In this document: piece after piece, positions 3,813 through 63,212 of the stretch
Layout of the letters: each line of letters starts with the position of its first letter
Numbering within the stretch: position 1 is the stretch's first letter
Assembly (NCBI GenBank): GCA_000146045.2
Contig: BK006944.2
Coordinates: forward strand, 96,001 to 160,000
DNA length: 64,000 nucleotides
Direction: 5' to 3'
Origin: TPA_inf: Saccharomyces
Taxonomy: Eukaryota
Notes under the pieces: generated by a model
Database searches by the model: none
What the model was told of the DNA's origin: nothing
What the model saw: only the letters and a program-made list of their open reading frames with translations
Made by a program: the position numbers and the translations under genes

Positions 3813-4261
3813 AACCCGTAGAAGGTCCGCATCAGCCTTCCATGCCCGTGCACCCACGGCTCCTCGGAGGCCGGGTTATAGCAGCGTCTGCTCCGCATCA
3901 CGATACACGAGGTGCAGGCACGGTTCACTACTCCCCTGGCCTCCAACAAACGACGGCCAAAAACTTCACATGCCGCCCAGCCAAGCATAATTACGCAACA
4001 GCGATCTTTCCGTCGCACAAGTTAAAAGAAATTGTTGAAAAATACAAATAATCGCGAACAATACGTTGTTGCTATTTAACGCTTTTGGTCTGACAGTAAG
4101 TGTGCCTTTCCCAATCACCGAAAAGTGTTGAACGATTCACTGCGACAATAATCAGAGATTACAGTCGGCATTTTGGCATTTTTGGCATACTTTTTATCGA
4201 TTGAACCATCTTCTCCAAACACTTTTCCTTTTTCCTTCTATTCTGCAGGACCAACTAAAAC

Positions 4262-4292
4262 TGGGTATATATATCATTATCTATATATATAA
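4262..4292 (+). promoter_or_regulatory. TATA-rich element in the FAS1 core promoter.
   Basis: gggtatatatatcattatctatatatataaac about 390 bp upstream of the FAS1 ATG. Confidence 0.4.
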
Positions 4293-4670
4293 ACGGCTTT
4301 CAACAAAGTTATAGGGGAAAACTAAAAATATAAGAAAAAAAAAGGTATTGATTGATAAGGAAAAAGAACCAAGGGAAAAATATAAAAAAGTACATTGGGC
4401 CTTTTCATACTTGTTATCACTTACATTACAAAGAAGAACAAACAACTTTTTTAAACGAATTTTCTTTCTTCCTTTTTCAATTTATTAATTCTTTTTTTCC
4501 ATACAATTCAAGGTCAAATATATTCTTATATGCTCTTTGAATATTTCTGAAAAATATATAAAGAAAAGAAACTACAAGAACATCATCCGGAAAATCAGAT
4601 TATAGACTAGGATTCCGCTCTTTTTAGTATATTTATTCGCCACACCTAACTGCTCTATTATTCGCTCATT

Positions 4671-7600
4671 ATGGACGCTTACTCCACAAGACCATTAACC
4701 CTATCTCACGGTTCTTTAGAGCACGTGCTTCTGGTACCAACCGCTTCATTTTTCATTGCTTCGCAATTACAAGAACAATTTAATAAAATTTTGCCCGAAC
4801 CCACTGAAGGGTTTGCTGCAGATGACGAGCCTACCACACCTGCTGAACTAGTGGGGAAATTCCTTGGCTACGTATCTTCTCTAGTCGAACCTTCCAAGGT
4901 CGGTCAATTCGATCAGGTCTTGAACCTTTGCTTAACAGAATTTGAAAACTGTTATTTAGAAGGCAATGACATTCACGCCTTGGCTGCTAAACTATTACAG
5001 GAAAACGACACAACTTTAGTGAAGACTAAAGAACTAATTAAAAATTATATTACCGCCAGAATAATGGCTAAGAGACCATTTGACAAAAAATCCAACTCTG
5101 CTCTTTTTAGGGCCGTCGGCGAGGGTAACGCACAATTGGTAGCCATTTTCGGTGGTCAAGGTAACACCGACGACTACTTTGAAGAATTGCGTGATCTATA
5201 TCAAACTTATCATGTCTTAGTGGGAGATTTAATCAAGTTCTCCGCTGAAACTTTAAGTGAACTGATTAGAACTACTTTAGATGCTGAAAAAGTCTTTACT
5301 CAAGGTTTAAACATATTGGAATGGTTGGAGAACCCTTCAAATACCCCAGACAAGGACTATTTACTTTCCATTCCAATTTCATGCCCCTTAATTGGTGTCA
5401 TTCAATTGGCTCACTACGTAGTTACTGCCAAGCTTTTGGGTTTCACTCCAGGTGAGTTAAGATCTTACTTAAAAGGTGCTACAGGTCACTCTCAAGGTTT
5501 GGTTACTGCTGTCGCCATAGCTGAGACGGATTCCTGGGAATCCTTCTTCGTCTCCGTAAGAAAAGCAATTACTGTATTATTCTTCATCGGTGTTCGTTGT
5601 TACGAAGCATACCCAAACACTTCCCTACCACCATCCATCTTGGAAGATTCCTTGGAAAACAATGAAGGTGTTCCATCTCCAATGTTGTCCATTTCCAATC
5701 TAACTCAAGAACAAGTTCAAGACTATGTAAATAAGACTAACTCTCATTTGCCAGCTGGTAAACAAGTTGAAATTTCTCTAGTCAATGGTGCGAAGAATCT
5801 AGTCGTATCGGGCCCACCACAATCATTATATGGTTTAAACTTGACTTTAAGAAAGGCCAAGGCCCCATCTGGACTGGATCAATCAAGAATCCCATTCAGC
5901 GAAAGAAAATTGAAGTTCTCCAATAGGTTCTTACCTGTTGCATCACCATTCCATTCCCATCTATTGGTTCCAGCTTCAGATTTGATTAACAAAGACTTAG
6001 TCAAAAACAATGTCAGCTTTAACGCTAAAGATATTCAAATCCCCGTTTACGACACTTTTGATGGTTCAGATCTAAGAGTCCTTTCAGGTTCCATTTCCGA
6101 GAGAATCGTCGACTGCATCATTAGATTACCTGTCAAATGGGAAACTACTACACAATTCAAAGCCACCCACATATTAGACTTTGGTCCAGGTGGAGCTTCC
6201 GGTTTAGGTGTTTTAACCCATCGTAATAAAGATGGTACTGGTGTTCGTGTTATCGTTGCCGGTACTCTCGACATTAACCCAGATGATGATTACGGATTCA
6301 AGCAAGAAATCTTTGATGTTACTAGTAATGGTTTGAAGAAAAATCCAAACTGGTTGGAAGAATACCATCCAAAATTAATTAAGAACAAATCAGGCAAAAT
6401 TTTTGTCGAAACAAAATTTTCTAAATTAATCGGTAGACCACCTTTATTGGTTCCTGGTATGACACCATGTACTGTTTCTCCAGATTTCGTAGCTGCTACC
6501 ACAAATGCTGGTTATACCATTGAGTTGGCCGGTGGTGGTTACTTTTCCGCAGCAGGTATGACCGCCGCTATTGATTCTGTGGTTTCTCAGATAGAAAAGG
6601 GTAGTACCTTCGGTATCAACTTGATCTACGTCAATCCATTTATGTTACAATGGGGTATTCCATTAATCAAGGAACTAAGAAGCAAAGGTTATCCAATTCA
6701 ATTCTTGACCATTGGTGCTGGTGTCCCATCATTGGAAGTTGCTAGTGAATACATAGAGACATTAGGTTTGAAGTACTTGGGTTTGAAACCAGGTTCCATT
6801 GATGCTATTTCGCAAGTTATAAACATTGCTAAAGCACATCCAAACTTCCCAATAGCTTTACAATGGACCGGTGGTAGAGGTGGTGGTCATCATTCTTTCG
6901 AAGATGCCCACACTCCAATGTTACAAATGTACTCCAAGATTAGAAGACATCCAAACATTATGTTGATATTCGGTTCTGGTTTCGGTTCTGCTGATGACAC
7001 TTACCCATACTTAACCGGTGAATGGTCCACAAAATTCGATTATCCACCAATGCCATTCGATGGTTTCCTATTTGGTTCGAGGGTCATGATTGCTAAGGAA
7101 GTTAAAACTTCTCCTGATGCTAAGAAGTGTATTGCTGCTTGTACTGGTGTTCCTGATGATAAATGGGAACAAACCTACAAGAAGCCAACTGGTGGTATTG
7201 TCACTGTTCGCTCTGAAATGGGTGAACCAATTCACAAAATTGCCACTCGTGGTGTTATGCTATGGAAGGAATTCGACGAAACCATCTTCAACTTACCAAA
7301 GAATAAGTTGGTACCAACTTTGGAAGCAAAGAGAGATTACATTATCTCAAGATTGAACGCCGATTTCCAAAAACCATGGTTTGCTACCGTCAACGGTCAA
7401 GCCCGTGACCTAGCCACAATGACATACGAAGAAGTTGCAAAGAGATTGGTGGAATTAATGTTCATCAGATCTACCAACTCTTGGTTTGATGTCACATGGA
7501 GAACCTTTACTGGTGATTTCCTACGTCGTGTCGAAGAACGTTTCACTAAAAGTAAGACATTGTCTTTAATCCAATCCTATTCTCTACTAGACAAGCCTGA

Positions 7601-10600
7601 TGAAGCTATTGAAAAAGTATTTAATGCTTATCCTGCCGCTAGGGAACAGTTCTTGAATGCGCAAGATATTGATCACTTTTTGAGCATGTGTCAAAATCCA
7701 ATGCAAAAACCAGTGCCTTTTGTTCCAGTTTTGGATCGTAGATTCGAGATTTTTTTCAAAAAAGATTCGTTATGGCAATCTGAGCACTTGGAAGCCGTCG
7801 TCGACCAAGACGTTCAAAGAACATGTATCCTACATGGACCTGTTGCAGCACAATTCACTAAAGTCATCGATGAACCAATTAAGAGCATTATGGATGGTAT
7901 TCACGATGGTCACATCAAAAAGTTACTACATCAATATTACGGTGACGATGAGTCAAAGATTCCAGCAGTTGAGTACTTTGGTGGTGAAAGCCCTGTAGAC
8001 GTACAAAGTCAAGTTGATTCTTCCTCTGTATCTGAAGACTCAGCTGTTTTTAAGGCAACATCCTCTACTGATGAAGAAAGCTGGTTTAAGGCTTTGGCGG
8101 GATCCGAAATTAACTGGAGACATGCAAGTTTCTTATGTTCCTTTATCACTCAAGATAAAATGTTTGTTTCTAACCCAATTAGAAAAGTTTTCAAGCCAAG
8201 CCAAGGAATGGTTGTTGAGATTTCCAACGGCAATACTTCTTCAAAGACTGTTGTCACTCTTTCAGAACCTGTTCAAGGTGAATTGAAACCAACTGTTATT
8301 TTGAAGTTGTTGAAGGAGAACATAATCCAAATGGAAATGATTGAGAACAGAACTATGGATGGTAAGCCCGTCAGCTTGCCATTGTTGTACAACTTCAACC
8401 CAGATAATGGTTTTGCTCCAATCTCTGAAGTTATGGAGGACAGAAACCAAAGAATTAAGGAAATGTACTGGAAATTATGGATTGATGAGCCTTTCAATTT
8501 GGACTTTGACCCAAGAGATGTCATTAAGGGCAAAGATTTCGAGATCACCGCTAAAGAAGTTTATGACTTTACACACGCTGTTGGAAACAATTGTGAAGAC
8601 TTCGTTTCTAGACCTGATAGAACGATGTTGGCCCCAATGGACTTTGCTATTGTTGTCGGATGGAGAGCCATCATCAAGGCCATTTTCCCTAATACGGTCG
8701 ATGGTGACTTATTGAAGTTGGTTCATTTGTCTAACGGCTACAAGATGATTCCTGGCGCTAAGCCACTGCAAGTTGGTGATGTTGTTTCAACTACTGCTGT
8801 TATTGAATCTGTCGTCAACCAACCTACAGGAAAGATTGTCGATGTGGTAGGTACATTATCGAGAAATGGCAAGCCTGTCATGGAAGTCACCTCCTCATTC
8901 TTCTACAGAGGCAACTATACTGACTTTGAAAACACTTTCCAAAAGACTGTTGAACCTGTTTATCAAATGCACATCAAAACTTCTAAAGATATAGCTGTCT
9001 TGCGCTCTAAGGAGTGGTTCCAATTGGACGATGAAGACTTCGATCTGTTAAACAAAACTTTGACTTTCGAAACTGAAACTGAAGTTACTTTCAAGAATGC
9101 TAACATCTTCTCTTCAGTGAAATGTTTTGGCCCAATTAAAGTTGAATTGCCAACCAAAGAAACCGTGGAGATCGGTATTGTCGATTACGAAGCCGGTGCC
9201 TCTCACGGTAACCCTGTTGTTGATTTCTTGAAGAGAAACGGTTCCACATTGGAACAAAAGGTCAATCTAGAAAATCCTATTCCAATTGCAGTACTTGATT
9301 CGTACACTCCAAGTACCAACGAACCATACGCTAGAGTTTCTGGTGATTTGAATCCAATTCACGTTTCACGTCATTTTGCCTCTTACGCAAACTTGCCAGG
9401 TACTATCACGCACGGTATGTTTTCTTCTGCTTCCGTCCGTGCTTTGATTGAAAACTGGGCTGCTGACAGTGTTTCATCCAGGGTACGTGGCTACACTTGT
9501 CAATTTGTTGACATGGTTTTGCCTAACACTGCTTTGAAAACATCGATTCAACATGTTGGTATGATCAATGGTAGAAAATTGATAAAGTTTGAAACTAGAA
9601 ATGAAGATGACGTTGTAGTTTTGACTGGTGAAGCCGAAATTGAACAACCTGTTACTACCTTCGTTTTCACTGGTCAAGGTTCACAAGAACAAGGTATGGG
9701 TATGGACTTATACAAAACTTCTAAAGCTGCTCAAGATGTTTGGAATAGAGCTGACAACCATTTCAAGGACACTTATGGTTTCTCTATCTTAGACATTGTC
9801 ATTAACAACCCAGTTAACTTAACAATTCACTTCGGTGGTGAAAAGGGTAAGAGGATCAGAGAAAACTATTCTGCTATGATCTTTGAGACTATCGTGGATG
9901 GAAAATTGAAGACTGAAAAAATTTTCAAGGAAATTAATGAGCACAGTACTTCTTACACATTTAGATCTGAAAAAGGTTTATTGTCTGCTACTCAATTTAC
10001 ACAACCAGCTTTAACTTTGATGGAAAAAGCTGCTTTCGAAGACTTGAAATCTAAAGGTTTGATCCCAGCCGATGCTACTTTTGCTGGTCACTCTTTAGGT
10101 GAGTATGCTGCTTTGGCCTCTTTGGCTGATGTTATGTCTATCGAATCTTTAGTTGAAGTTGTGTTCTACAGAGGTATGACTATGCAAGTTGCTGTTCCAA
10201 GAGATGAGTTGGGCAGATCCAACTATGGTATGATTGCCATTAACCCAGGTAGAGTCGCTGCATCATTCTCTCAAGAAGCTTTGCAATATGTTGTTGAGAG
10301 AGTTGGTAAGAGAACCGGCTGGTTGGTTGAAATCGTCAACTACAACGTTGAAAACCAACAATATGTTGCAGCTGGTGATCTAAGAGCTTTAGACACCGTT
10401 ACCAATGTTCTAAACTTCATCAAATTACAAAAAATTGATATTATTGAACTACAAAAGTCCTTATCTTTGGAAGAAGTTGAAGGTCATTTGTTTGAGATCA
10501 TTGACGAAGCTTCCAAGAAATCTGCTGTCAAGCCTCGCCCACTTAAATTGGAGAGAGGTTTTGCTTGTATCCCATTAGTTGGTATTTCTGTTCCTTTCCA

Positions 10601-10826
10601 TTCCACCTACTTGATGAATGGTGTTAAACCATTCAAGAGTTTCTTGAAGAAGAATATCATAAAAGAAAATGTGAAGGTTGCTAGATTGGCCGGAAAGTAC
10701 ATTCCAAACTTGACTGCAAAACCATTCCAGGTTACTAAGGAATATTTCCAGGACGTTTATGATTTGACTGGCTCCGAACCTATCAAGGAAATCATCGACA
10801 ACTGGGAAAAGTATGAACAATCCTAA
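4671..10826 (+). CDS. FAS1: Fatty acid synthase beta subunit, 2051 aa (acetyltransferase, enoyl reductase, dehydratase, malonyl/palmitoyl transferase).
   Basis: 2051-aa ORF. The GHSQG active-site serine of the acetyltransferase is near the N-terminus and the GHSLGEYAAL serine of the MPT domain is near the C-terminus; the FMN-type enoyl reductase core lies in the middle. Confidence 0.98.
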   Translation: MDAYSTRPLTLSHGSLEHVLLVPTASFFIASQLQEQFNKILPEPTEGFAADDEPTTPAELVGKFLGYVSSLVEPSKVGQFDQVLNLCLTEFENCYLEGNDIHALAAKLLQENDTTLVKTKELIKNYITARIMAKRPFDKKSNSALFRAVGEGNAQLVAIFGGQGNTDDYFEELRDLYQTYHVLVGDLIKFSAETLSELIRTTLDAEKVFTQGLNILEWLENPSNTPDKDYLLSIPISCPLIGVIQLAHYVVTAKLLGFTPGELRSYLKGATGHSQGLVTAVAIAETDSWESFFVSVRKAITVLFFIGVRCYEAYPNTSLPPSILEDSLENNEGVPSPMLSISNLTQEQVQDYVNKTNSHLPAGKQVEISLVNGAKNLVVSGPPQSLYGLNLTLRKAKAPSGLDQSRIPFSERKLKFSNRFLPVASPFHSHLLVPASDLINKDLVKNNVSFNAKDIQIPVYDTFDGSDLRVLSGSISERIVDCIIRLPVKWETTTQFKATHILDFGPGGASGLGVLTHRNKDGTGVRVIVAGTLDINPDDDYGFKQEIFDVTSNGLKKNPNWLEEYHPKLIKNKSGKIFVETKFSKLIGRPPLLVPGMTPCTVSPDFVAATTNAGYTIELAGGGYFSAAGMTAAIDSVVSQIEKGSTFGINLIYVNPFMLQWGIPLIKELRSKGYPIQFLTIGAGVPSLEVASEYIETLGLKYLGLKPGSIDAISQVINIAKAHPNFPIALQWTGGRGGGHHSFEDAHTPMLQMYSKIRRHPNIMLIFGSGFGSADDTYPYLTGEWSTKFDYPPMPFDGFLFGSRVMIAKEVKTSPDAKKCIAACTGVPDDKWEQTYKKPTGGIVTVRSEMGEPIHKIATRGVMLWKEFDETIFNLPKNKLVPTLEAKRDYIISRLNADFQKPWFATVNGQARDLATMTYEEVAKRLVELMFIRSTNSWFDVTWRTFTGDFLRRVEERFTKSKTLSLIQSYSLLDKPDEAIEKVFNAYPAAREQFLNAQDIDHFLSMCQNPMQKPVPFVPVLDRRFEIFFKKDSLWQSEHLEAVVDQDVQRTCILHGPVAAQFTKVIDEPIKSIMDGIHDGHIKKLLHQYYGDDESKIPAVEYFGGESPVDVQSQVDSSSVSEDSAVFKATSSTDEESWFKALAGSEINWRHASFLCSFITQDKMFVSNPIRKVFKPSQGMVVEISNGNTSSKTVVTLSEPVQGELKPTVILKLLKENIIQMEMIENRTMDGKPVSLPLLYNFNPDNGFAPISEVMEDRNQRIKEMYWKLWIDEPFNLDFDPRDVIKGKDFEITAKEVYDFTHAVGNNCEDFVSRPDRTMLAPMDFAIVVGWRAIIKAIFPNTVDGDLLKLVHLSNGYKMIPGAKPLQVGDVVSTTAVIESVVNQPTGKIVDVVGTLSRNGKPVMEVTSSFFYRGNYTDFENTFQKTVEPVYQMHIKTSKDIAVLRSKEWFQLDDEDFDLLNKTLTFETETEVTFKNANIFSSVKCFGPIKVELPTKETVEIGIVDYEAGASHGNPVVDFLKRNGSTLEQKVNLENPIPIAVLDSYTPSTNEPYARVSGDLNPIHVSRHFASYANLPGTITHGMFSSASVRALIENWAADSVSSRVRGYTCQFVDMVLPNTALKTSIQHVGMINGRKLIKFETRNEDDVVVLTGEAEIEQPVTTFVFTGQGSQEQGMGMDLYKTSKAAQDVWNRADNHFKDTYGFSILDIVINNPVNLTIHFGGEKGKRIRENYSAMIFETIVDGKLKTEKIFKEINEHSTSYTFRSEKGLLSATQFTQPALTLMEKAAFEDLKSKGLIPADATFAGHSLGEYAALASLADVMSIESLVEVVFYRGMTMQVAVPRDELGRSNYGMIAINPGRVAASFSQEALQYVVERVGKRTGWLVEIVNYNVENQQYVAAGDLRALDTVTNVLNFIKLQKIDIIELQKSLSLEEVEGHLFEIIDEASKKSAVKPRPLKLERGFACIPLVGISVPFHSTYLMNGVKPFKSFLKKNIIKENVKVARLAGKYIPNLTAKPFQVTKEYFQDVYDLTGSEPIKEIIDNWEKYEQS

Positions 10827-11315
10827 TTTCTTAAGTGATTATATAACCGTAAGAAATATTTAACTTTGAAACTCCTGTATACTAATGTTTAATATAGCTG
10901 GCTTATGATTTTAGTTCTCTTCTCCTATTATAAATAGATACATTGATTAGGTATTTTTATAATATACTTGGGATTAACAGATGCTATATGAATTTTTTTT
11001 TCCGCCGCAAGCCCTCGCTAGGGCGGGGCAGATGCTGAAGAAAAAATTTTCTGTTCCATTGGGTTATGTTTAAAAATCAACGATATTCGAACATAATCGA
11101 TGACCTTGATGATTAGCGAAGTTCTGCTCTAAAGAAATTAGCTTTAAAAACAGCTCCATTATTAGTGTAAACTGCTACTTCAACTCTTTACTCGAAAAGT
11201 TGAAACAAGTGTCTATTCCGCACATCTCTGCAATAACCGAACCTTCACGATTTAGCTACAATCCCACATCTGCAGATTCTACCGTTTAATAGTCTTAATT
11301 TGAAGAGAAATAAAA

Positions 11316-12599
11316 ATGCGTAAGTGTAAAATTTTTGTTGGTAACTCTCACCCAGAGTTGGGTAATATGGTTTGCCAAAGATTAGGTATCGAACCAGCTC
11401 CATGTACATTAAAAAAATTTGCAAATGGTGAAACGTCAGTTCAAATCGGTGTATCTGTTCGTGACGAAGATGTGTATGTCATTCAATCTGGTTCTCCATC
11501 CATAAATGATGACATTATGGAACTGTTGATTTTAGTTTCTGCCTGTAGGGGCGGATCTGCTAGGAAAATTACAGCAGTCATTCCTCAATTTCCTTACTCT
11601 AAACAATGTAAAATGAAGAGACACAGAGGCGCTATTACTGCAAGGATGTTGGCCAATCTGTTGGTCATGGCTGGCGCTGATCATGTTGTGTCTATGGACC
11701 TTCATGCTTCTCAAATGCAGGGGTTTTTCACCAAACCAGTCGATAACCTATACGGGGGCCCTAGTTTAGCGAAATGGATTAGAGAAAATGTTGAAGACTA
11801 TGAAGATGCAGTAGTTGTCTCTAAGAATCCAGGTGGTACTAAAAGAGTTACAGCCCTGGCGGATTCTTTGAAGATCAACTTTGCTATGATCCATACTGAT
11901 CGTCGTCGTTCTAAGGATCTGTATTCTCAAAACAAGGATTTGCAACAACTAAAGTTGAGAAAGCAATCAATGTTGAGGAAAAATAGACCGATCATCAGAC
12001 AAGGTGACCATCCAAATGAGGAGGAAAACATTATTTTAAGTAACGGTATTCAAACTGCTAGGATCCGTAACGGCCACGTTATCGGTGACGATGAGGCAGA
12101 CGATGATGAAGACGCTATCTTAGAATCTGACAGCGAATTGCATTCTATTGATGGCTTAGACTCGCATGGCTTGGGCGGTACATATGATGCTGTCGACTCC
12201 GAAGACGAAGAGGAAATCCCAGTTCTCTATAGGGAACAACTGATTACATTGGTCGGAAACGTCCGTGGTCGCTCTGCCATCATTCTAGATGATATGATTG
12301 ATAGACCTGGGTCATTTATTAGCGCTGCTGAACATTTGGTGCAAAATTGTGGTGCCAAAAAGGTTTATGTTGTTGCTACTCACGGTATATTCACTGGAGA
12401 CTGTTTGGAAGAACTTGAAAAGTCCGATGCCATTGACACAATTGTGGTCACAAATACATATCCGATTTCTGGCGAACGCATAGCTGGGTCCAAGAAATTG
12501 GTTACTATCGATGTTTCTCCAATTTTCGCAGAATGTATCCGTCGTGATCATTATGGTGAGAGTATTTCCGTTTTATTTGACTCTTTGGCAGCTCTGTAA
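11316..12599 (+). CDS. PRS1: PRPP synthetase subunit 1, 427 aa, with the non-homologous NHR insertion.
   Basis: Ribose-phosphate pyrophosphokinase N- and C-terminal halves are split by a roughly 100-aa acidic insert (DDEADDDEDAILESDSE...), which is characteristic of yeast Prs1. Confidence 0.95.
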   Translation: MRKCKIFVGNSHPELGNMVCQRLGIEPAPCTLKKFANGETSVQIGVSVRDEDVYVIQSGSPSINDDIMELLILVSACRGGSARKITAVIPQFPYSKQCKMKRHRGAITARMLANLLVMAGADHVVSMDLHASQMQGFFTKPVDNLYGGPSLAKWIRENVEDYEDAVVVSKNPGGTKRVTALADSLKINFAMIHTDRRRSKDLYSQNKDLQQLKLRKQSMLRKNRPIIRQGDHPNEEENIILSNGIQTARIRNGHVIGDDEADDDEDAILESDSELHSIDGLDSHGLGGTYDAVDSEDEEEIPVLYREQLITLVGNVRGRSAIILDDMIDRPGSFISAAEHLVQNCGAKKVYVVATHGIFTGDCLEELEKSDAIDTIVVTNTYPISGERIAGSKKLVTIDVSPIFAECIRRDHYGESISVLFDSLAAL

Positions 12600-12920
12600 A
12601 CAGAAGAGAGTGTGCGCAATATTTTAGTTCTTAAATATGACATAGATTATCAAAAAACTTTGTATGTTTGCCAGATTTCAGTGAATCTGCAAGAGTATAA
12701 ATTATAGGAATTTGGGTGAATTAAACCATTTATTATGTTTTATGTATCATGGAAAAAACAGAACCTTTATCAAATCATCTATGAAATTTTGACAGGTTAG
12801 CCATTTTCCTCATTTTATTGCTCTGCAATAGTAAATTATATAGATTTATGCAATGCTCTAGGTTCCGGCGGCTTTTCATTTAATGTGAACTCAAGACTAT
12901 TATCATCCAAACACATTACA

Positions 12921-12934
12921 ACATCCGTACATTT
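12921..12934 (+). promoter_or_regulatory. Rap1-like site (ACATCCGTACATTT) in the RPL17A promoter.
   Basis: One mismatch to ACACCCRYACAYM, about 340 bp upstream of the RPL17A ATG, a typical position for a ribosomal-protein gene. Confidence 0.35.
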
Positions 12935-13268
12935 AGTTGGCTCCATTTTTTGAAAAAATACTTCCGAGTAAGATGCTGAAAGTAATCAAATTCCGTGAAA
13001 AAGGAACCGATTTGGTAAGGGCGGACCTGCCGGAAGAAAATCGCTCCCGCGTGTCTACTGGACTTTGCTTCTTTGCCAGGCGGGAGAATGAAGCCCACCG
13101 GCCTAGCTCTATGGGCGCAGACAGGGATGGTCTCGATTTGCTTTCTCACTGCAATGGAAATTTCTAACATTAGAGCTTCAACGGCTAGCATAAAACAACT
13201 ACTAACGTTTTCAGTGCTATATTCGAAAGAGCAAACAAAGAGTCCTCAAGAACTACTAATAGATTAAA

Positions 13269-13577
13269 ATGGCTAGATACGGTGCTACTTCCACTAACCC
13301 TGCTAAATCCGCTTCTGCTCGTGGTTCCTACTTGCGTGTTTCTTTCAAGAACACCAGAGAAACTGCTCAAGCTATTAACGGTTGGGAATTGACCAAGGCT
13401 CAAAAATACTTGGAACAAGTTTTGGACCACCAAAGAGCTATTCCTTTCAGAAGATTTAACTCTTCCATCGGTAGAACTGCTCAAGGTAAGGAATTTGGTG
13501 TCACCAAGGCTAGATGGCCAGCTAAGTCTGTTAAGTTCGTTCAAGGTTTGTTGCAAAACGCCGCTGCCAACGCTGAA
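13269..13577 (+). CDS. RPL17A: Ribosomal protein L17A (uL22), exon 1 (codons 1-103).
   Basis: ORF begins MARYGATSTNPAK.... The reading frame runs into GTATGT at 13578, giving the read-through VCQEYYMFSTR* in the track ORF. Confidence 0.93.
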
Positions 13578-13883
13578 GTATGTCAAGAATATTATATGTT
13601 TAGTACCAGATGAAACAAGAATGAGTTGAAATTCAAAATGCGCGGAAAATCCATTATGATCAAGGGAAATTGAATATGATAAATGAATTATTCAGAAAGT
13701 CACAATTACCAGATTGGAATGAACTGTCAAGCTGAAAAGCAACTAAGGATTACCATTACGTGTTTATGATTTTGTTAGAAAAATATTGAAAACTTGATAT
13801 TTCTTTCCGCTAGTTTCATCTTTTTCAATTACTTAACCGGATCAAAATTTTTTTTACTAACAACATAACTATTTTTATTACAG

Positions 13884-14129
13884 GCTAAAGGTTTGGATGC
13901 TACTAAATTGTACGTTTCTCATATCCAAGTTAACCAAGCTCCAAAGCAAAGAAGAAGAACTTACAGAGCTCACGGTAGAATCAACAAGTACGAATCTTCT
14001 CCATCCCACATTGAATTAGTTGTCACTGAAAAGGAAGAAGCTGTCGCCAAGGCTGCTGAAAAGAAGGTCGTTAGATTGACTTCTAGACAAAGAGGTAGAA
14101 TCGCCGCCCAAAAGCGTATTGCTGCTTAA
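13884..14129 (+). CDS. RPL17A: Ribosomal protein L17A, exon 2 (81 codons plus stop). The intron is 13578..13883 (306 nt) with GTATGT...TACTAAC...CAG; total 184 aa.
   Basis: TTTTTTACTAAC branch point about 28 nt upstream of the TTACAG acceptor. Exon 2 ([15 protein letters not shown]...) joins in frame; 103+81=184 aa equals the known length. Confidence 0.9.
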
Positions 14130-14463
14130 ATAGAAGATGAAAAATAATGATAATATAATTCTCTGTTAATTTTAATCTTTTATCTATGTAATTTTATCTC
14201 CCCGTCATATCACATAACTCTAAAATAAGTTTTTTATTAATATTATTATATTATATCGGATAATCCTACGTTCAAAGTATTGAACATAGTTTTATAATGA
14301 ACAAAGGTATAAGAAATGCTCATAAACTGAAAAAATCCCGTAGATAAGATAATAAGAAATGCTACTGTCTATATCAATATGTCAATCGTTACTCATTCCC
14401 TCTCTAGTACGGAACGTGTGCGTTCTTCATACCGAGCTATTAGAATTTAGTGAATAAAGGCAT

Positions 14464-16503
14464 CTATCGATTTATGCCATGAACTGAACCAACGCCTGCA
14501 GCTACTTTTTCTGCTCCCCCAAGTCCTCCGTTGAGATTTGAAGAAGACTTTGCCGATTGTACTATACCAACCTCAGGTGTCATGTAGCCGCTAATATTAA
14601 TCACATACATGCTCATCATGAATACGAGTCCGTGTAAACCGATACAGTAAAAGAGGAATACCATCCTTGTCATTTTATTTTGTAAAATGACTTTTGCAAA
14701 ACTGGAAAATAACTTCTCTAAAGCTGATAATTTCTTGTTTTTGTAGTGGTTTAATTCGTTCTGTCTAAAATTTGCCATTGGATGCAACGATTCATCATAC
14801 ACCCTTGAGTATTGGGATTCCACGTCAATACGCTCTGTACTTTGATTAACGGGAGCGTTGTTATTATTATAGGATTGCAGATACCTAATCCGTTCATAAA
14901 GCTTCGTATTGTCGCCTTTTAGCTTCGAAATTTCTAGTTTAAGCTTACCCTTTTCTGAGTTTCCTTGTCTTAGTTGCTTTTCCAGATCCATATTTCTCGA
15001 ACGAAATCTGTCTCTTTGTTTAGTAACTATTGGTAAAATGGTTGATTGGTTTCCAGAAAGTTCCCCATCTTCTGGAATACCAATAATAGAACTCGTTGGG
15101 GACATTTTATGGGACGTACGATTGTTCATTTGTCTTGTTACACCAGACATCATACTTGCAGTCTCGTTGAAGTGAGGACTGACGTTCTCTACTTTTTCTA
15201 GGTCCGTCTCTAATTTTTCATTTGCTTCTTTGAGAGTAGCTATTTGCTGCTTCAATTGGTCCACAGATTTTTTCAATTCGTTTCGTTCTTCCTCTTGAGC
15301 CGTACTTTTTGAGCGGTATTCCGCCAAAGTAGCCTGGAGCTTCTTATTTGCAGATAGTAAGGAACTTTCGAAAGTATTATCATTCTTGTCTTCAGAGCGA
15401 ATGTCATTATCAGAATCATCTTCGTTTACCCCAAACTCAATTTTTTTCAATGCAGAAAGTTCTTCTTTTATCTTATTGTAATCAGAATAATTGTTTAGTT
15501 TTCTTCTAACAGTTTCTAGCTCCGACTTGTAAGATTCCGATTCCGCCACAACGCTATTTAATTGTTCTTTTAACTCATTTATTGCATGTGATGTTGATTT
15601 CCGTTCCTGCTCATAGGATGCACTCAACAATGCATTTTCGCTTTCCAGCTGGTTAAGTTTTAGTTCCTTTGCATGTAACTCAGTTTCTTTTTCTGCTTCA
15701 CTAGTTGCCTTTGCAAGAGCACCACTTAGTTCCTCATTTCTTTTCTCTAACTGATATATTCTAGCCTGCGTAGTTTCCAACTCCTGTGTTACTAGATTAT
15801 ATTCAGCAATCCTTGTAGATACTTCTTTTTGATTGTTTTCTTGGTCACCATCTTCGTTTCCATTACCTTCTATATCTATATTTTTAGATATTTTGGCCTC
15901 TAGTGCCTTGTTTTGCTCCTGTACATTTGTTAATTGTTTCAATAGATCTGCTTCTCTCTCTTTCCAATTTCTTCCTTTTTCCTCCCAGGTAGAATTGATT
16001 TCTTGAGTTTTCGCAGTCAGTCTTTTTGCCAATGTTTTTGCAGAGCTTTGCTCTAGGTCCAGTAACCTTGATTTCAAAGTCTCATAATCTGCATATTTGG
16101 CTAGCTTATCTTCTAGGTAGCTTATTTTTTCCTTAAGTTCCTTCGAGTCATCAATTTTGCCCAATTTTTCCAACGAACTTTGTAGTAGCGGCTGTGGATC
16201 AGGAGCCTCTGAAAGCTTTTCGTATACGTCAAAAAGAACCTTTTCAGAGAATTTTGATCTCTGTGTCAAATTATCAATTTCACGTTGGTACTGCTTAATT
16301 ATTTTATTCACATTGTTCAATTTTTCCTCAGGTTCGAGTTTTTTAAATTTTTTAGTCTCAGTGGCTAATGACTTTCTTGAATTCAAGGACAGGGTTTCTT
16401 TATCCTTAATCTCTATAACATCAGCATCCAATTCTCTTTGAAGATTCGTTAAATCTGCCTTGGCCCAAATATCCAATGCATGAGAATATACTGACGTATC
16501 CAT
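14464..16503 (-). CDS. COY1: Golgi membrane protein, CASP homologue, 679 aa from the first ATG. The track ORF begins 6 nt upstream at TTG.
   Basis: Long coiled-coil protein with a single C-terminal transmembrane segment (VFLFYCIGLHGLVFMMSMYVI); position matches YKL179C. Confidence 0.9.
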   Translation of the reverse strand: MDTSVYSHALDIWAKADLTNLQRELDADVIEIKDKETLSLNSRKSLATETKKFKKLEPEEKLNNVNKIIKQYQREIDNLTQRSKFSEKVLFDVYEKLSEAPDPQPLLQSSLEKLGKIDDSKELKEKISYLEDKLAKYADYETLKSRLLDLEQSSAKTLAKRLTAKTQEINSTWEEKGRNWKEREADLLKQLTNVQEQNKALEAKISKNIDIEGNGNEDGDQENNQKEVSTRIAEYNLVTQELETTQARIYQLEKRNEELSGALAKATSEAEKETELHAKELKLNQLESENALLSASYEQERKSTSHAINELKEQLNSVVAESESYKSELETVRRKLNNYSDYNKIKEELSALKKIEFGVNEDDSDNDIRSEDKNDNTFESSLLSANKKLQATLAEYRSKSTAQEEERNELKKSVDQLKQQIATLKEANEKLETDLEKVENVSPHFNETASMMSGVTRQMNNRTSHKMSPTSSIIGIPEDGELSGNQSTILPIVTKQRDRFRSRNMDLEKQLRQGNSEKGKLKLEISKLKGDNTKLYERIRYLQSYNNNNAPVNQSTERIDVESQYSRVYDESLHPMANFRQNELNHYKNKKLSALEKLFSSFAKVILQNKMTRMVFLFYCIGLHGLVFMMSMYVINISGYMTPEVGIVQSAKSSSNLNGGLGGAEKVAAGVGSVHGINR

Positions 16504-57815: not shown

Positions 57816-58451
57816 TTAATCATCGTCATCAGTATCGAATATAGATTTTGGTGGGAAAGCGGTTTTAACGTGGTCCGCTAATTGCATCTGTCCATTTCCA
57901 TCGTTCGTGGGACATCTATCAATGGTAATTGCGCCCACCTTTGATTTCAATAACGTGAAAGTACCATTGTTATTTTTGTCTGGATTATTAGGCAATAGTT
58001 GGCTAGCTTCCAACCGCTGCTGCTGGTCCTGTTGTATATGACTTTGTATATGCCTTTGTGGCGCATCCTCACATTTGCTGAAATCGAATTCGGGAGGTGG
58101 TGATGCTGGGGGCGATATCAGGAACATTTTTTCACTCTCTGGTACCTTCAAGTATTGTTTAGTTAAATTCCTTTGTCCGTCTTGCAAGGAGTAGCTGAAG
58201 TTAAAATTTTCCATTTCTAAAGCACGAGACGCATCCATAACATGCTGAGATATATCATGACTGGGGCAGATCAACAGTATTCTTTTAAACCTTTTCAAAA
58301 TAATCAACTGTAGTGGTTCATTTTCATTGATTTGAAACTTCCTTAAGATATTCTTGGATAGCCAAACCTGGATTCTTTCAACATTATCATTATCAACAAT
58401 GTCGCACTTATCCGAGGTTATAATTATCGTATCCGTTATAATATTACCCAT
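57816..58451 (-). CDS. RCN1: Calcipressin (regulator of calcineurin), 211 aa.
   Basis: RCAN-family signature FLISPPASPPPEF and the C-terminal calcineurin-docking region. Confidence 0.93.
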   Translation of the reverse strand: MGNIITDTIIITSDKCDIVDNDNVERIQVWLSKNILRKFQINENEPLQLIILKRFKRILLICPSHDISQHVMDASRALEMENFNFSYSLQDGQRNLTKQYLKVPESEKMFLISPPASPPPEFDFSKCEDAPQRHIQSHIQQDQQQRLEASQLLPNNPDKNNNGTFTLLKSKVGAITIDRCPTNDGNGQMQLADHVKTAFPPKSIFDTDDDD

Positions 58452-58990
58452 CTGCAGTTCTGTGTTTTATATATCGGTTGGTTTATTGCTTGATCTTTTT
58501 GGCCCTCTTTTTTTCATGGAATTACTGTATTTAAAAAGAAAACCATACTTTATATAGAAGTCATTGGGCAGAAGGGTCTTGTCAACGAGCCGCCTAGGAA
58601 CTACACCTGACAGCAACTTGCGGCAAGATAGTAAGATAGCATAATTCAAAGCCTCTTGAACCTTACAGCGCCTTGCCGCGGTTTGGTAAACTTCTAAACT
58701 GTGTATGTTACACGTGAAGCGAGGCTTGGAACACCTAAGAAGAGATCCTTTTCATATTTACTATCCATCAACACTGCGCCTTTTCGTGATGATGCATTTG
58801 ATAGTATGGCAGATGTGCTACGGTACTTCGATCTAATGTGCTCTTAGACAGATATGCTAAATAATTTCAATCTAATTCGTCCGCGTTGTAAATTAAGAAA
58901 TCATGTAAACGTTATATCAAGAAATAACAATCGAAGGATAGTTCAAAAAATCTGACATAAAAAGGTACTTAAAAACACAGGTTGCATAAT

Positions 58991-59271
58991 ATGCCAATTG
59001 TTCGGTGGCTATTATTGAAAAGCGCAGTTAGAGGTTCTTCTCTAATAGGCAAAGCTCACCCTTGTTTAAGGTCTATTGCTGCACACCCTAGGTATTTATC
59101 TAATGTGTACTCACCACCAGCAGGCGTCAGTAGATCACTGCGCATCAATGTAATGTGGAAGCAGAGTAAATTAACTCCCCCAAGATTTGTGAAGATCATG
59201 AATAGACGCCCTCTGTTCACAGAAACTAGTCACGCCTGTGCGAAGTGCCAAAAAACGTCACAATTACTAAA
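58991..59271 (+). CDS. APE2: Aminopeptidase 2, exon 1 (93 codons plus 2 nt), encoding an N-terminal presequence-like extension.
   Basis: ATG at 58991 (MPIVRWLLLKSAVRGSS...; the track ORF starts three codons earlier at TTG). The frame runs into GTATGT at 59272. Confidence 0.8.
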
Positions 59272-59654
59272 GTATGTTTACACAAAAGCTTAACAAAGAA
59301 ACAAGGAAAAGATATACATAATATAAATTACCACTGATTATTTTGAACATGAGACCGAAATACCAGGATGTATTACTAGCCTTGTTTACCATTCTTCAAC
59401 TGGTGATTACAAAGTGAGTTCTCATTCATTGTTACCCTCATATTCTTATCTTCTGCAGCAGGAAAAAGGGATTTACCCAACTAATTGACTTTGATAGAAT
59501 TGTGATTGCAATAGCTTAGGTAATATTTCAGTTAGACTACGACATCCAGTTATTTTTTTCTATTTCTCTGCTCGTTACCGACCTTTGAGTTCTTACTAAC
59601 TTACATTCTCTATTAATTGTACCCAAAAGTACGAAGGACAACTAAAATGACCAG

Positions 59655-62232
59655 TAAAACCCCAAATCGTGAAATTCTTCCTGATAATGTCGTTCCTTTA
59701 CACTACGATTTAACCGTGGAACCTGATTTCAAAACATTCAAATTTGAAGGCTCAGTCAAAATTGAGCTAAAAATTAATAATCCTGCAATTGATACGGTAA
59801 CATTGAACACCGTCGATACCGACATCCATTCTGCAAAAATCGGTGATGTCACATCTTCCGAGATTATCTCTGAAGAGGAGCAACAAGTCACCACATTTGC
59901 GTTTCCTAAAGGGACCATGTCTTCTTTCAAGGGTAATGCATTTTTGGATATAAAATTTACTGGTATTTTAAATGATAATATGGCTGGCTTTTACAGAGCC
60001 AAATATGAGGACAAGTTAACAGGTGAGACAAAATACATGGCTACTACTCAGATGGAACCTACTGATGCTAGAAGGGCCTTCCCATGTTTTGATGAGCCTA
60101 ACTTGAAAGCCTCTTTTGCTATTACTTTAGTTTCAGACCCATCTTTGACACACCTATCCAATATGGACGTCAAGAACGAATACGTAAAGGATGGAAAAAA
60201 GGTCACTTTGTTCAATACGACCCCTAAAATGTCAACTTACCTTGTTGCTTTTATTGTTGCTGAATTGAAGTACGTTGAATCCAAGAACTTTCGTATTCCT
60301 GTCAGAGTTTACGCCACCCCAGGTAACGAAAAACATGGTCAGTTTGCCGCGGATTTGACTGCCAAGACTTTGGCATTTTTTGAAAAAACTTTTGGCATCC
60401 AATATCCTCTACCTAAAATGGACAATGTTGCTGTTCACGAATTTTCTGCAGGAGCTATGGAAAATTGGGGGTTAGTCACTTATAGAGTGGTTGATCTACT
60501 ACTAGACAAAGATAACTCTACATTAGATCGTATTCAAAGAGTGGCTGAGGTAGTTCAACATGAATTAGCTCACCAATGGTTTGGTAACTTAGTTACTATG
60601 GACTGGTGGGAAGGCTTATGGCTAAATGAAGGTTTTGCTACTTGGATGTCATGGTATTCATGTAATGAGTTTCAACCAGAATGGAAAGTTTGGGAACAGT
60701 ATGTTACTGATACCTTACAACATGCATTAAGCCTTGACTCTTTAAGGTCCTCTCATCCGATCGAAGTACCTGTAAAAAAAGCTGACGAAATTAACCAAAT
60801 CTTTGATGCCATCTCTTACTCAAAGGGTGCTTCTTTATTAAGGATGATTTCGAAATGGTTAGGTGAAGAAACTTTTATTAAAGGTGTATCCCAATACCTG
60901 AATAAATTTAAATACGGTAATGCGAAGACTGAAGACCTATGGGATGCTTTAGCGGACGCCTCCGGTAAAGACGTTCGTTCTGTGATGAACATCTGGACTA
61001 AAAAAGTTGGTTTCCCAGTCATTTCAGTTAGCGAAGATGGTAACGGTAAAATAACATTTCGCCAAAACCGTTACTTAAGCACAGCTGATGTCAAGCCCGA
61101 CGAGGACAAAACCATCTATCCTGTATTTTTGGCTTTGAAGACTAAAAATGGAGTTGACAGTTCCGTTGTATTGAGTGAAAGAAGCAAAACTATTGAATTA
61201 GAAGATCCTACCTTTTTCAAAGTTAACAGCGAACAATCCGGAATTTATATAACATCCTACACCGATGAAAGATGGGCAAAACTGGGTCAACAAGCTGACT
61301 TATTGTCTGTTGAGGACCGTGTCGGTCTGGTTGCTGATGTCAAGACACTATCTGCTTCTGGCTACACTTCAACTACTAATTTTTTGAACTTAGTCTCCAA
61401 ATGGAATAATGAAAAGTCATTTGTCGTCTGGGACCAAATAATCAACAGCATATCTTCAATGAAATCTACTTGGTTATTCGAACCAAAGGAAACCCAGGAT
61501 GCGCTTGATAACTTCACGAAGCAACTAATAAGCGGTATGACACACCACTTGGGTTGGGAATTCAAATCTTCTGATTCGTTCTCCACTCAACGTTTGAAAG
61601 TGACCATGTTTGGTGCTGCTTGTGCCGCAAGGGACGCAGACGTTGAAAAAGCTGCTCTAAAAATGTTTACTGATTATTGCAGCGGTAATAAGGAAGCCAT
61701 CCCAGCATTGATTAAACCAATTGTATTTAACACTGTGGCAAGAGTTGGTGGTGCAGAAAACTATGAAAAAGTTTACAAAATCTACTTAGATCCAATCTCT
61801 AACGATGAAAAATTAGCCGCATTAAGATCTTTAGGCAGATTTAAAGAACCTAAATTATTAGAAAGAACCTTAGGATATTTGTTTGATGGCACTGTCTTAA
61901 ACCAAGACATTTATATTCCAATGCAAGGAATGAGAGCTCATCAAGAAGGTGTAGAGGCTTTGTGGAATTGGGTTAAAAAGAACTGGGACGAACTCGTAAA
62001 GAGACTACCTCCTGGTCTTTCAATGCTAGGCTCCGTCGTCACATTAGGTACCTCTGGCTTTACATCAATGCAAAAAATAGATGAGATTAAGAAATTCTTT
62101 GCCACTAAATCCACGAAAGGTTTCGATCAAAGTTTGGCTCAATCACTGGACACTATTACTTCGAAAGCGCAGTGGGTTAACAGAGACCGTGATGTCGTCA
62201 ACAAGTATTTGAAGGAAAATGGTTACTATTAA
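59655..62232 (+). CDS. APE2: Aminopeptidase 2 (M1 zinc metallo-aminopeptidase), exon 2. The intron is 59272..59654 (383 nt); spliced product is 952 aa.
   Basis: TACTAAC at 59594..59600. The acceptor is chosen as the CAG at 59652..59654, which restores the frame (the two upstream AAG sites at 59629 and 59636 do not, or do so only via a 958-aa product). M1 motifs GAMENWG and HELAHQWFGN...WLNEGFA (HEXXH+E). The 952-aa total equals the known length. Confidence 0.8.
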
Positions 62233-62966: not shown

Positions 62967-63212
62967 GTTTTAGTTCAAGATTTATTGCACCCAACTGCAG
63001 CTTCTGAAGCAAGAAAGCACAAATTAAAGACATTAGTCCAAGGTCCAAGATCGTACTTCCTAGACGTTAAGTGCCCAGGTTGTTTGAACATCACTACAGT
63101 TTTCTCACACGCCCAAACTGCAGTTACCTGCGAATCCTGCTCAACAATTTTGTGCACCCCAACTGGTGGTAAGGCAAAGCTTTCTGAGGGTACATCTTTC
63201 AGAAGAAAGTAA
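62967..63212 (+). CDS. RPS27A: Ribosomal protein S27A, exon 2 (81 codons plus stop); the total is 82 aa ([20 protein letters not shown]...SFRRK).
   Basis: Exon 2 begins GTTTTAGTTCAAGATTTATTGCAC in frame with the track ORF 62985..63212. C4 zinc finger CPGC...CESC. Confidence 0.85.

Follow-up and report, generated by a model that had tools for sequence, protein, structure and literature searches.

Structure of the APE2 locus

We analysed a 64,000-nt stretch of Saccharomyces DNA (the window) that contains the intron-bearing gene APE2/YKL157W of S. cerevisiae. Our results make it likely that APE2 produces two N-terminal isoforms from two transcription start regions, with its intron acting as the switch between them. 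Positions are given in the numbering of the window, in which position x corresponds to chrXI 96000 + x; this offset was deduced from a published splice junction, chrXI 155272-155636, which corresponds to window 59272-59636 (PMC4607428). Joining 59271 to 59655 gave a coding sequence of 952 amino acids (aa), and the spliced product was 99% identical to Ape2p. An open reading frame (ORF) beginning at ATG 59647, inside the intron, encoded 861 aa and began MTSKTPNREILP; the N-terminal peptide of this short form, as read from the sequence, would be TSKTPNREILPDNVVPLHYDLTVEPDFK. All landmarks that the original prediction had placed in this gene (58991, 59271, 59272, 59594, the two AAG trinucleotides, 59647 and the CAG) matched the sequence, and the intronic ATG was in frame with exon 2 as claimed, lying 8 nt ahead of 59655. 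The further claim that this ATG opens a shorter M1 aminopeptidase was also borne out, as the 861-aa ORF was complete and matched Peptidase_M1_N (E = 2e-54), Peptidase_M1 (6e-90) and ERAP1_C (2e-98) in Pfam, with the M1 domains beginning at residue 16 of the short form. The translation contained the GAMEN exopeptidase motif (AGAMENWG) and a HELAH-x18-E zinc site (HExxH-x18-E; HELAHQWFGNLVTMDWWEGLWLNEG), and the residues of both motifs were invariant in an alignment of 24 sequences. Judged by these domains and motifs, the APE2 product is an M1 zinc aminopeptidase of the Ape2/Aap1 group. The elements of the gene are as follows.

58991..59271, + strand: exon 1, 281 nt (93 codons + 2 nt), encoding an extension unique to the long form
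59272..59654, + strand: intron, 383 nt, GTATGT ... TACTAAC ... CAG
59272..59277, + strand: 5' splice site GTATGT, read from the sequence
59594..59600, + strand: branch-point box TACTAAC, branch A at 59599, at the same distance in S. uvarum and in a third Saccharomyces sequence
59627..59629, + strand: proximal AAG, a cryptic out-of-frame acceptor, 30 nt from the branch A
59634..59636, + strand: second AAG, a documented alternative acceptor, in frame, 37 nt from the branch A
59647..59649, + strand: putative start codon of the short isoform (861 aa), inside the terminal 8 nt of the intron, sharing the frame of exon 2
59652..59654, + strand: main acceptor CAG, 55 nt from the branch A, giving a product that matches Ape2p
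59655..62232, + strand: exon 2, the complete M1 aminopeptidase body including the stop codon (Pfam, GAMEN, HELAH-x18-E)

With GTATGT, TACTAAC and a YAG acceptor, and with the same signals in the orthologues, the APE2 intron is by its sequence a canonical S. cerevisiae spliceosomal intron. A GTGAGT at 59413 was considered as an alternative 5' splice site and dropped, as it joins exon 2 out of frame. A search of the intron against Rfam gave no match with E <= 1, and an intronic snoRNA or other known RNA was accordingly rejected as the cause of intron conservation.

The intronic start codon and the exon 1 extension across Saccharomycetaceae

Orthologous loci of eight species (S. cerevisiae, S. 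uvarum, a third Saccharomyces, N. dairenensis, M. servazzii, Z. mrakii, L. fermentati and K. lactis) were scanned mechanically for upstream exons joining in frame. Every species had exactly one plausible exon, initiated by an ATG, 137-284 nt long, followed by GTATGT and joining in frame. In seven of the eight, the short-form ATG and the acceptor shared the layout ATG-NNY-AG/ (the slash marks the splice junction), in which the YAG acceptor ends 7 nt past the A of the short ATG; the layout occurred as ATG-ACC-AG/, ATG-TCT-AG/ and ATG-AGC-AG/, and codon 3 was always a serine codon, AGY. The exception was M. servazzii, in which the exon was present and the CAG lay 8 nt upstream of the ATG, so that the Met is internal to the long form. 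As a pattern in the compared sequences, this register is far too regular to have arisen by chance. Since splicing removes ATG 59647, the spliced mRNA could not give the short protein by leaky scanning at that position, and each class of APE2 mRNA would encode one isoform only. APE2 would thereby be a clean example of an intron used as a switch in an intron-poor model organism.

The AAP1 paralogue starts at a Met equivalent to that of the short form, and most annotated orthologues (~860 aa), as well as the annotations of many strains, begin at the short-form Met without exon 1. Because such orthologues are annotated without exon 1, the putative mitochondrial form is systematically missed and the long isoform wrongly annotated. 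In one S. uvarum assembly, exon 1 was annotated as a separate hypothetical protein of 106 aa beside an 861-aa aminopeptidase (locus positions 4001-4476 and 4834-7419). In the third Saccharomyces sequence (its locus positions 4646-4657), the second AAG was lost and an extra in-frame CAG ended 2 nt before the ATG; if used, this CAG would keep the Met within the long form (...LSLNMTSNTPK...).

The two-start arrangement has been described before. In Hurtig 2020 (RNA 26:1464, PMC7491326), the intronic AUG is apparently carried by an mRNA from a transcription start site inside the intron, reads internal to the intron are abundant, all Saccharomycetaceae retain the two-start potential, the upstream start of AAP1 disappeared following the whole-genome duplication, and mitochondrial and cytoplasmic isoforms are proposed from RNA sequencing (RNA-seq) and conservation. 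Both the bypassed AAGs and the intronic-AUG two-isoform model are thus already known (Meyer 2011; Hurtig 2020). As far as the available portions of these sources extend, the ATG-NNY-AG/ register, the ATG-free-leader statistics, the link between a Reb1-type site and the mutants of Rogic 2008, and the CxKC motif, described below, may be new. The core model is published, and our analysis opens no long-standing question.

Exon 1 had been described in the original prediction as encoding a basic, hydroxylated, presequence-like extension, and its composition agreed with this description: the peptide contained 16 K+R against 1 D+E and 16% S+T, and its first acidic residue did not occur before position 78. 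Across the species, K+R numbered 13-16 in extensions of 81-97 aa and 8 in the 46-aa extension of K. lactis, with D+E at 1-4, and the first 40 aa were almost free of acidic residues in all species compared. By composition, the short-form N-terminus is acidic, in contrast with the basic exon 1 peptide. The exon 1 peptide therefore looks, by its composition, like a matrix presequence in every species examined, and it has no hydrophobic core long enough for an endoplasmic reticulum (ER) signal peptide.

The N-terminal part of exon 1 diverges fast (57% of its amino acids are identical in S. cerevisiae and S. uvarum). A motif stands out at its other end.

59204..59257, + strand: peptide motif RRPLFTETSHACAKCQKT, R-x-(L/F)-(F/M)-T-x-T-x-x-x-C-x-K-C, residues 72-89, at the C-terminal end of exon 1

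This motif was kept from K. lactis to S. cerevisiae in its amino acids, with codons changing synonymously; in N. dairenensis, 14 of its 18 aa were identical, and 9 of those 14 had a different codon. The synonymous changes indicate that selection acts on the protein rather than on the DNA or RNA, and amino-acid conservation of this kind indicates that ribosomes translate exon 1 and read on into exon 2. An MPP/Oct1-type processing region, R-x-(F/L/I)-x-x-(S/T/G), looks similar to the motif but differs from it by one position in register; going by the sequence, the motif could serve in two-step processing or as an element sensitive to metals or redox state. Pfam returned no match to the extension or to its CxKC motif, and a folded domain in the extension was rejected, as the AlphaFold predicted local distance difference test (pLDDT) score was 20-35 (<50) over residues 1-101 and the Pfam result was empty. 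In more distant yeasts, a His/Cys-rich patch followed by 'MC' was observed at the place of the motif. Our sequence analysis establishes the anatomy of the gene, its conservation, and selection on exon 1 at the protein level.

A candidate internal promoter and the two-isoform model

The following features of the intron and of the upstream region bear on where the two mRNA classes start.

59371..59646, + strand: ATG-free tract, the probable leader of an internally initiated mRNA, 276 nt (shuffle P = 0.006)
59421..59470, + strand: block with the highest conservation in the intron (82-85% identity between Saccharomyces species), a candidate internal promoter element
59432..59438, + strand: Reb1-type site TTACCCT, within the conserved intron block
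59349..59417, + strand: 22-codon hydrophobic small ORF MRPKYQDVLLALFTILQLVITK, inside the intron
58868..58905, + strand: conserved element of the presumed distal promoter, AATCTAATTCGTCCGCGTTGTAAATTAAGAAATCAT (AATCTAATTCGTCCGCGTTGTAAATT..GAAATCAT), ~90-120 nt upstream of the exon 1 ATG

An ATG-free tail of 95-288 nt preceded the short ATG in all eight species (combined P = 2.7e-5 over 6 lineages). The ATG-free zone is limited to the intron's 3' part, which is what a leader starting within the intron would show, and the tail is, as far as sequence statistics can indicate, the mark of such a leader. S. cerevisiae and S. uvarum were 71% identical in the intron, 62% in the N-terminal part of exon 1 and 58% in the upstream region. 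The conserved intron block contains TTACCCT, which we take to be a Reb1-type motif. The introns of the three Saccharomyces sequences, N. dairenensis, Z. mrakii and K. lactis carried TTACCCG or TTACCCT at a distance of 67-241 nt before the short ATG, and the remaining two species had CACGTG at -181 and -222 instead of TTACCCK. Strict TTACCCG would occur in three or more of the five outgroup introns with a chance probability of P = 0.0018.

Published mutants bear on this block. In Rogic 2008 (PMC2536676), ape2-L1 and ape2-S4, both of which replace 59430..59446, lowered Ape2 protein and were the sole APE2 intron mutants with less Ape2, whatever their predicted structure; the authors suspected a 'splicing enhancer'. 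Our data suggest that loss of an internal promoter element explains the L1 and S4 mutants more simply than loss of a splicing enhancer. A TATA-like sequence, ATACATAATATAAAT, at ~59314-59328 was rejected as the core of the internal promoter, as the corresponding mutant ape2-S2 kept its protein level (PMC2536676). In addition, Alexander 2010 (PMC3000496) found a peak of Ser5-phosphorylated RNA polymerase II (pSer5 Pol II) at the APE2 3' splice site (3'SS), separate from the promoter peak, and read it as splicing-dependent pausing; the same peak fits de novo initiation. We infer from these observations where the internal promoter lies and on which factors it depends.

The small ORF MRPKYQDVLLALFTILQLVITK was open in four Saccharomyces sequences, with an in-frame 3-nt indel in S. 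uvarum. It was rejected as a coding micropeptide, as its substitutions showed no third-position (codon-position) bias and the evidence for coding was weak. Unrelated hydrophobic small ORFs occurred at similar intron positions in N. dairenensis and Z. mrakii. Upstream of exon 1, AATCTAATTCGTCCGCGTTGTAAATTAAGAAATCAT was nearly invariant in four Saccharomyces sequences, and the surrounding region was 58-71% identical; this conservation makes the element a candidate for regulating the distal promoter.

The two-isoform model that we favour runs as follows. Transcripts from the distal promoter, starting upstream of 58991, would comprise both exons with the intron between them; splicing between GTATGT 59272 and CAG 59654 would add the basic, presequence-like 93-codon extension in frame and delete ATG 59647, and the long product would be a 952-aa precursor directed to mitochondria. 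Short mRNAs would start inside the intron, probably downstream of the block 59421-59470. Since such transcripts would lack the 5' splice site, they could not be spliced, and their first AUG would be that at 59647, giving an 861-aa cytosolic enzyme. The gene has an upstream in-frame start that adds a putative targeting peptide, as expected for dual targeting, the peptide being recognized by its composition. The separate fates of the two Ape2 proteins are presumed here, as they are in the literature. The dual localization put forward in the original prediction was retained in its mitochondrial and cytosolic part, which is the same model as in PMC7491326; its periplasmic part had no support in the sequence, the exon 1 peptide having no signal-peptide-like hydrophobic core.

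What is recorded of Ape2 abundance and location is consistent with this model. APE2 spliced-junction reads are few (PMC12707134), and tables reused in PMC12707816 give ~9,000-16,000 copies of Ape2, read here as per cell. A whole-cell (yeast)/mito ratio of 13.3 marks Ape2 as a mostly non-mitochondrial protein (PMC5561175 supplement). Ape2 was found in purified mitochondria (PMC5561175 supplement; PMC12707816), and GFP signals in the cytoplasm plus mitochondria are mentioned, as a citation, in PMC7491326; the entry for the APE2 strain was left blank or taken out in a split-GFP matrix screen (PMC12707816). Few junction reads together with an abundant, mostly non-mitochondrial protein agree with the short form being predominant and the long form minor, and the short form appears to be the bulk of Ape2.

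Several points weigh against the two-isoform model or parts of it. TTACCCT is a common 7-mer, with 12 occurrences in the 64-kb window, so that the S. cerevisiae site gains its meaning solely from being conserved; the promoter motif set was picked after the data had been inspected, and two species have CACGTG instead. The pSer5 peak at the 3'SS is shared by other intron genes and is therefore not specific (PMC3000496). A look-up of the 861-aa ORF for transcript contigs matched genomic contigs alone and provided no direct mapping of 5' ends. The presequence character of exon 1 was judged by amino-acid composition only, Vogtle 2017 puts Ape2 in an 'ambiguous' submitochondrial class, and a literature search found no N-terminal peptide and no size-resolved western for either isoform.

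The short isoform could instead come from intron retention, that is, from initiation at AUG 59647 on full-length unspliced RNA. Splicing of APE2 looks inefficient, with many intron reads, and GCR1 is cited as a precedent for an intronic AUG (Hurtig 2020, PMC7491326). However, eight AUGs precede 59647 on the unspliced RNA, among them the exon 1 AUG, whose 100-codon ORF terminates within the intron, so that scanning ribosomes would rarely arrive at 59647; in addition, the unspliced RNA would be a target of nonsense-mediated decay, and the conserved ATG-free zone spans only the 3' part of the intron. We consider intron retention an improbable source. Of the two origins envisaged in the original prediction, an unspliced or an internally initiated transcript, the eight AUGs make internal initiation the likelier and leave the unspliced RNA much less plausible. 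A single product can also be distributed between two compartments in yeast, as fumarase is. By analogy, only the spliced 952-aa precursor might be made, with dual localization arising from incomplete import or processing and with ATG 59647 an unused relic of the old 861-aa annotation; neither isoform has been demonstrated as a protein in the literature found. This explanation leaves unaccounted for the retention of the ATG-NNY-AG/ layout and of the AUG-free leader across Saccharomycetaceae, as well as the fact that AAP1 kept exactly the short form, and it is difficult to reconcile with the few junction reads (PMC12707134) against ~9,000-16,000 Ape2 copies (PMC12707816) and with the non-mitochondrial location of most Ape2 (PMC5561175 supplement). 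We hold it to be unlikely.

Exon 1 itself might not encode a mitochondrial presequence at all, and might be a non-coding or regulatory upstream ORF or a signal for secretion into the periplasm. Older biochemistry described aminopeptidase II as external as well as internal, and Ape2 is listed in extracellular proteomes, to judge by the titles of the reports. Against this stand the conservation of amino acids through synonymous changes with in-frame reading into exon 2, the lack of an ER-type hydrophobic core in a peptide with a composition typical of matrix presequences, and the presence of Ape2 in purified mitochondria. A non-mitochondrial role of exon 1 is the least credible of these explanations, and we regard it as very improbable.

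An extension of the two-isoform model is doubtful, though conceivable: the intron might serve as a general-regulatory-factor promoter (Reb1-type here, Cbf1/Abf1-type elsewhere) that sets the cytosolic:mitochondrial ratio by its strength against that of the distal promoter, and the exon 1 extension might do more than serve as a dispensable presequence, its conserved RxLFTxT...CxKC module acting in two-step processing or as a metal- or redox-responsive element peculiar to the mitochondrial form. Rogic 2008, for splicing efficiency, and Alexander 2010, for Pol II pausing, employed APE2 as a 'standard' intron reporter, and an internal promoter would confound protein and chromatin immunoprecipitation (ChIP) read-outs. 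If the intron is a promoter, the APE2 results on 'splicing efficiency' and on 'Pol II pausing' at the 3'SS would partly reflect internal initiation. A literature search found no paper naming Reb1 together with APE2.

The arrangement was compared with known systems. SUC2, HTS1 and VAS1 achieve dual targeting through two transcription starts flanking an upstream in-frame AUG. As in the APE2 model, their long mRNA holds the upstream AUG and a targeting peptide, and their short mRNA gives the cytosolic form. In these genes both AUGs lie in one continuous ORF, whereas in APE2 they are separated by an intron whose removal takes the downstream AUG out of the long mRNA, so that leaky scanning there cannot give the short form. 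GCR1 (Hossain 2016, as cited in PMC7491326) resembles APE2 in having an AUG in the annotated intron and a second isoform that shares the exon 2 body. According to that citation, both GCR1 proteins have been shown experimentally and the intron-retained RNA is translated; in contrast, the short APE2 mRNA probably starts inside the intron, and the APE2 isoforms would differ by a targeting peptide. In PTC7 (Juneau 2009, as cited in PMC5793784), as in the APE2 model, the outcome of splicing in yeast determines whether a mitochondrial or a non-mitochondrial isoform is made, but translation runs through the PTC7 intron in frame and a single promoter is enough, whereas the APE2 intron is not open in frame with exon 1 (stop at 59291-59293). 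APE2 as portrayed in Hurtig 2020 and in papers citing Meyer 2011 is the same system, and nothing essential differs.

Acceptor choice in the APE2 intron and neighbouring genes

The original prediction had named the CAG at 59652..59654 as the frame-restoring acceptor and held that splicing must skip the two AAGs. The CAG does restore the frame; it is not alone in doing so, as the AAG ending at 59636 is also in frame, and splicing to it adds 18 nt and six residues (TTKMTS-type). Splicing to the AAG ending at 59629, the only one of the three acceptors to shift the frame, gives AAT ACG AAG GAC AAC TAA, in which a stop follows the fifth codon. As a rule both AAGs are passed over, yet the AAG ending at 59636 is used: the junction chrXI 155272-155636 (-18 nt, frame-preserving) was supported by 86 reads in an RNA-seq survey (PMC4607428), and heat shock enhances its use. 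As papers citing Meyer 2011 (Mol Cell 43:1033) describe it, a stem-loop between the branch point and the 3' splice site, a proposed RNA thermosensor, occludes an AAG, and heat shock raises the use of the occluded AAG, adding six residues. In a 2026 study, the Prp8 mutation Q1594A shifted acceptor use toward AAGs at constant temperature (PMC12707134), which indicates that the hairpin structure is not the sole determinant of acceptor choice.

59617..59634, + strand: predicted hairpin UUGUAC-CCAAAA-GUACGA, overlapping both AAGs (ViennaRNA minimum free energy (MFE) and centroid structures)

In the ViennaRNA prediction, this hairpin has a 6-bp stem (59617-22 with 59629-34) of -4.3 kcal/mol at 37 C and -3.4 at 42 C. 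Within this stem, the G of the first AAG and the initial A of the second AAG are base-paired, and the AG of the second AAG falls just outside. The stem was retained in S. uvarum and in the third Saccharomyces sequence, with a U.G to U-A change. The hairpin was no more stable than shuffled sequence (z = -0.55), which counts against its part in the proposed mechanism. In that mechanism, a weak hairpin together with the YAG preference of the spliceosome would lead both AAGs to be passed over in Saccharomyces, and the AAG at 59636 would serve as a minor, heat-enhanced alternative that adds 6 aa. In the outgroups, the distance from branch point to acceptor was short and no such AAGs were present, in agreement with the view in Hurtig 2020 (PMC7491326) that alternative 3' splice site use is a recent Saccharomyces addition.

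APE2 is flanked upstream by a 211-aa ORF of the calcipressin family (57816-58451, - strand) and downstream by the second exon of a ribosomal protein S27e gene (62985-63212, + strand), which is likewise intron-containing according to gene calls in strain assemblies.

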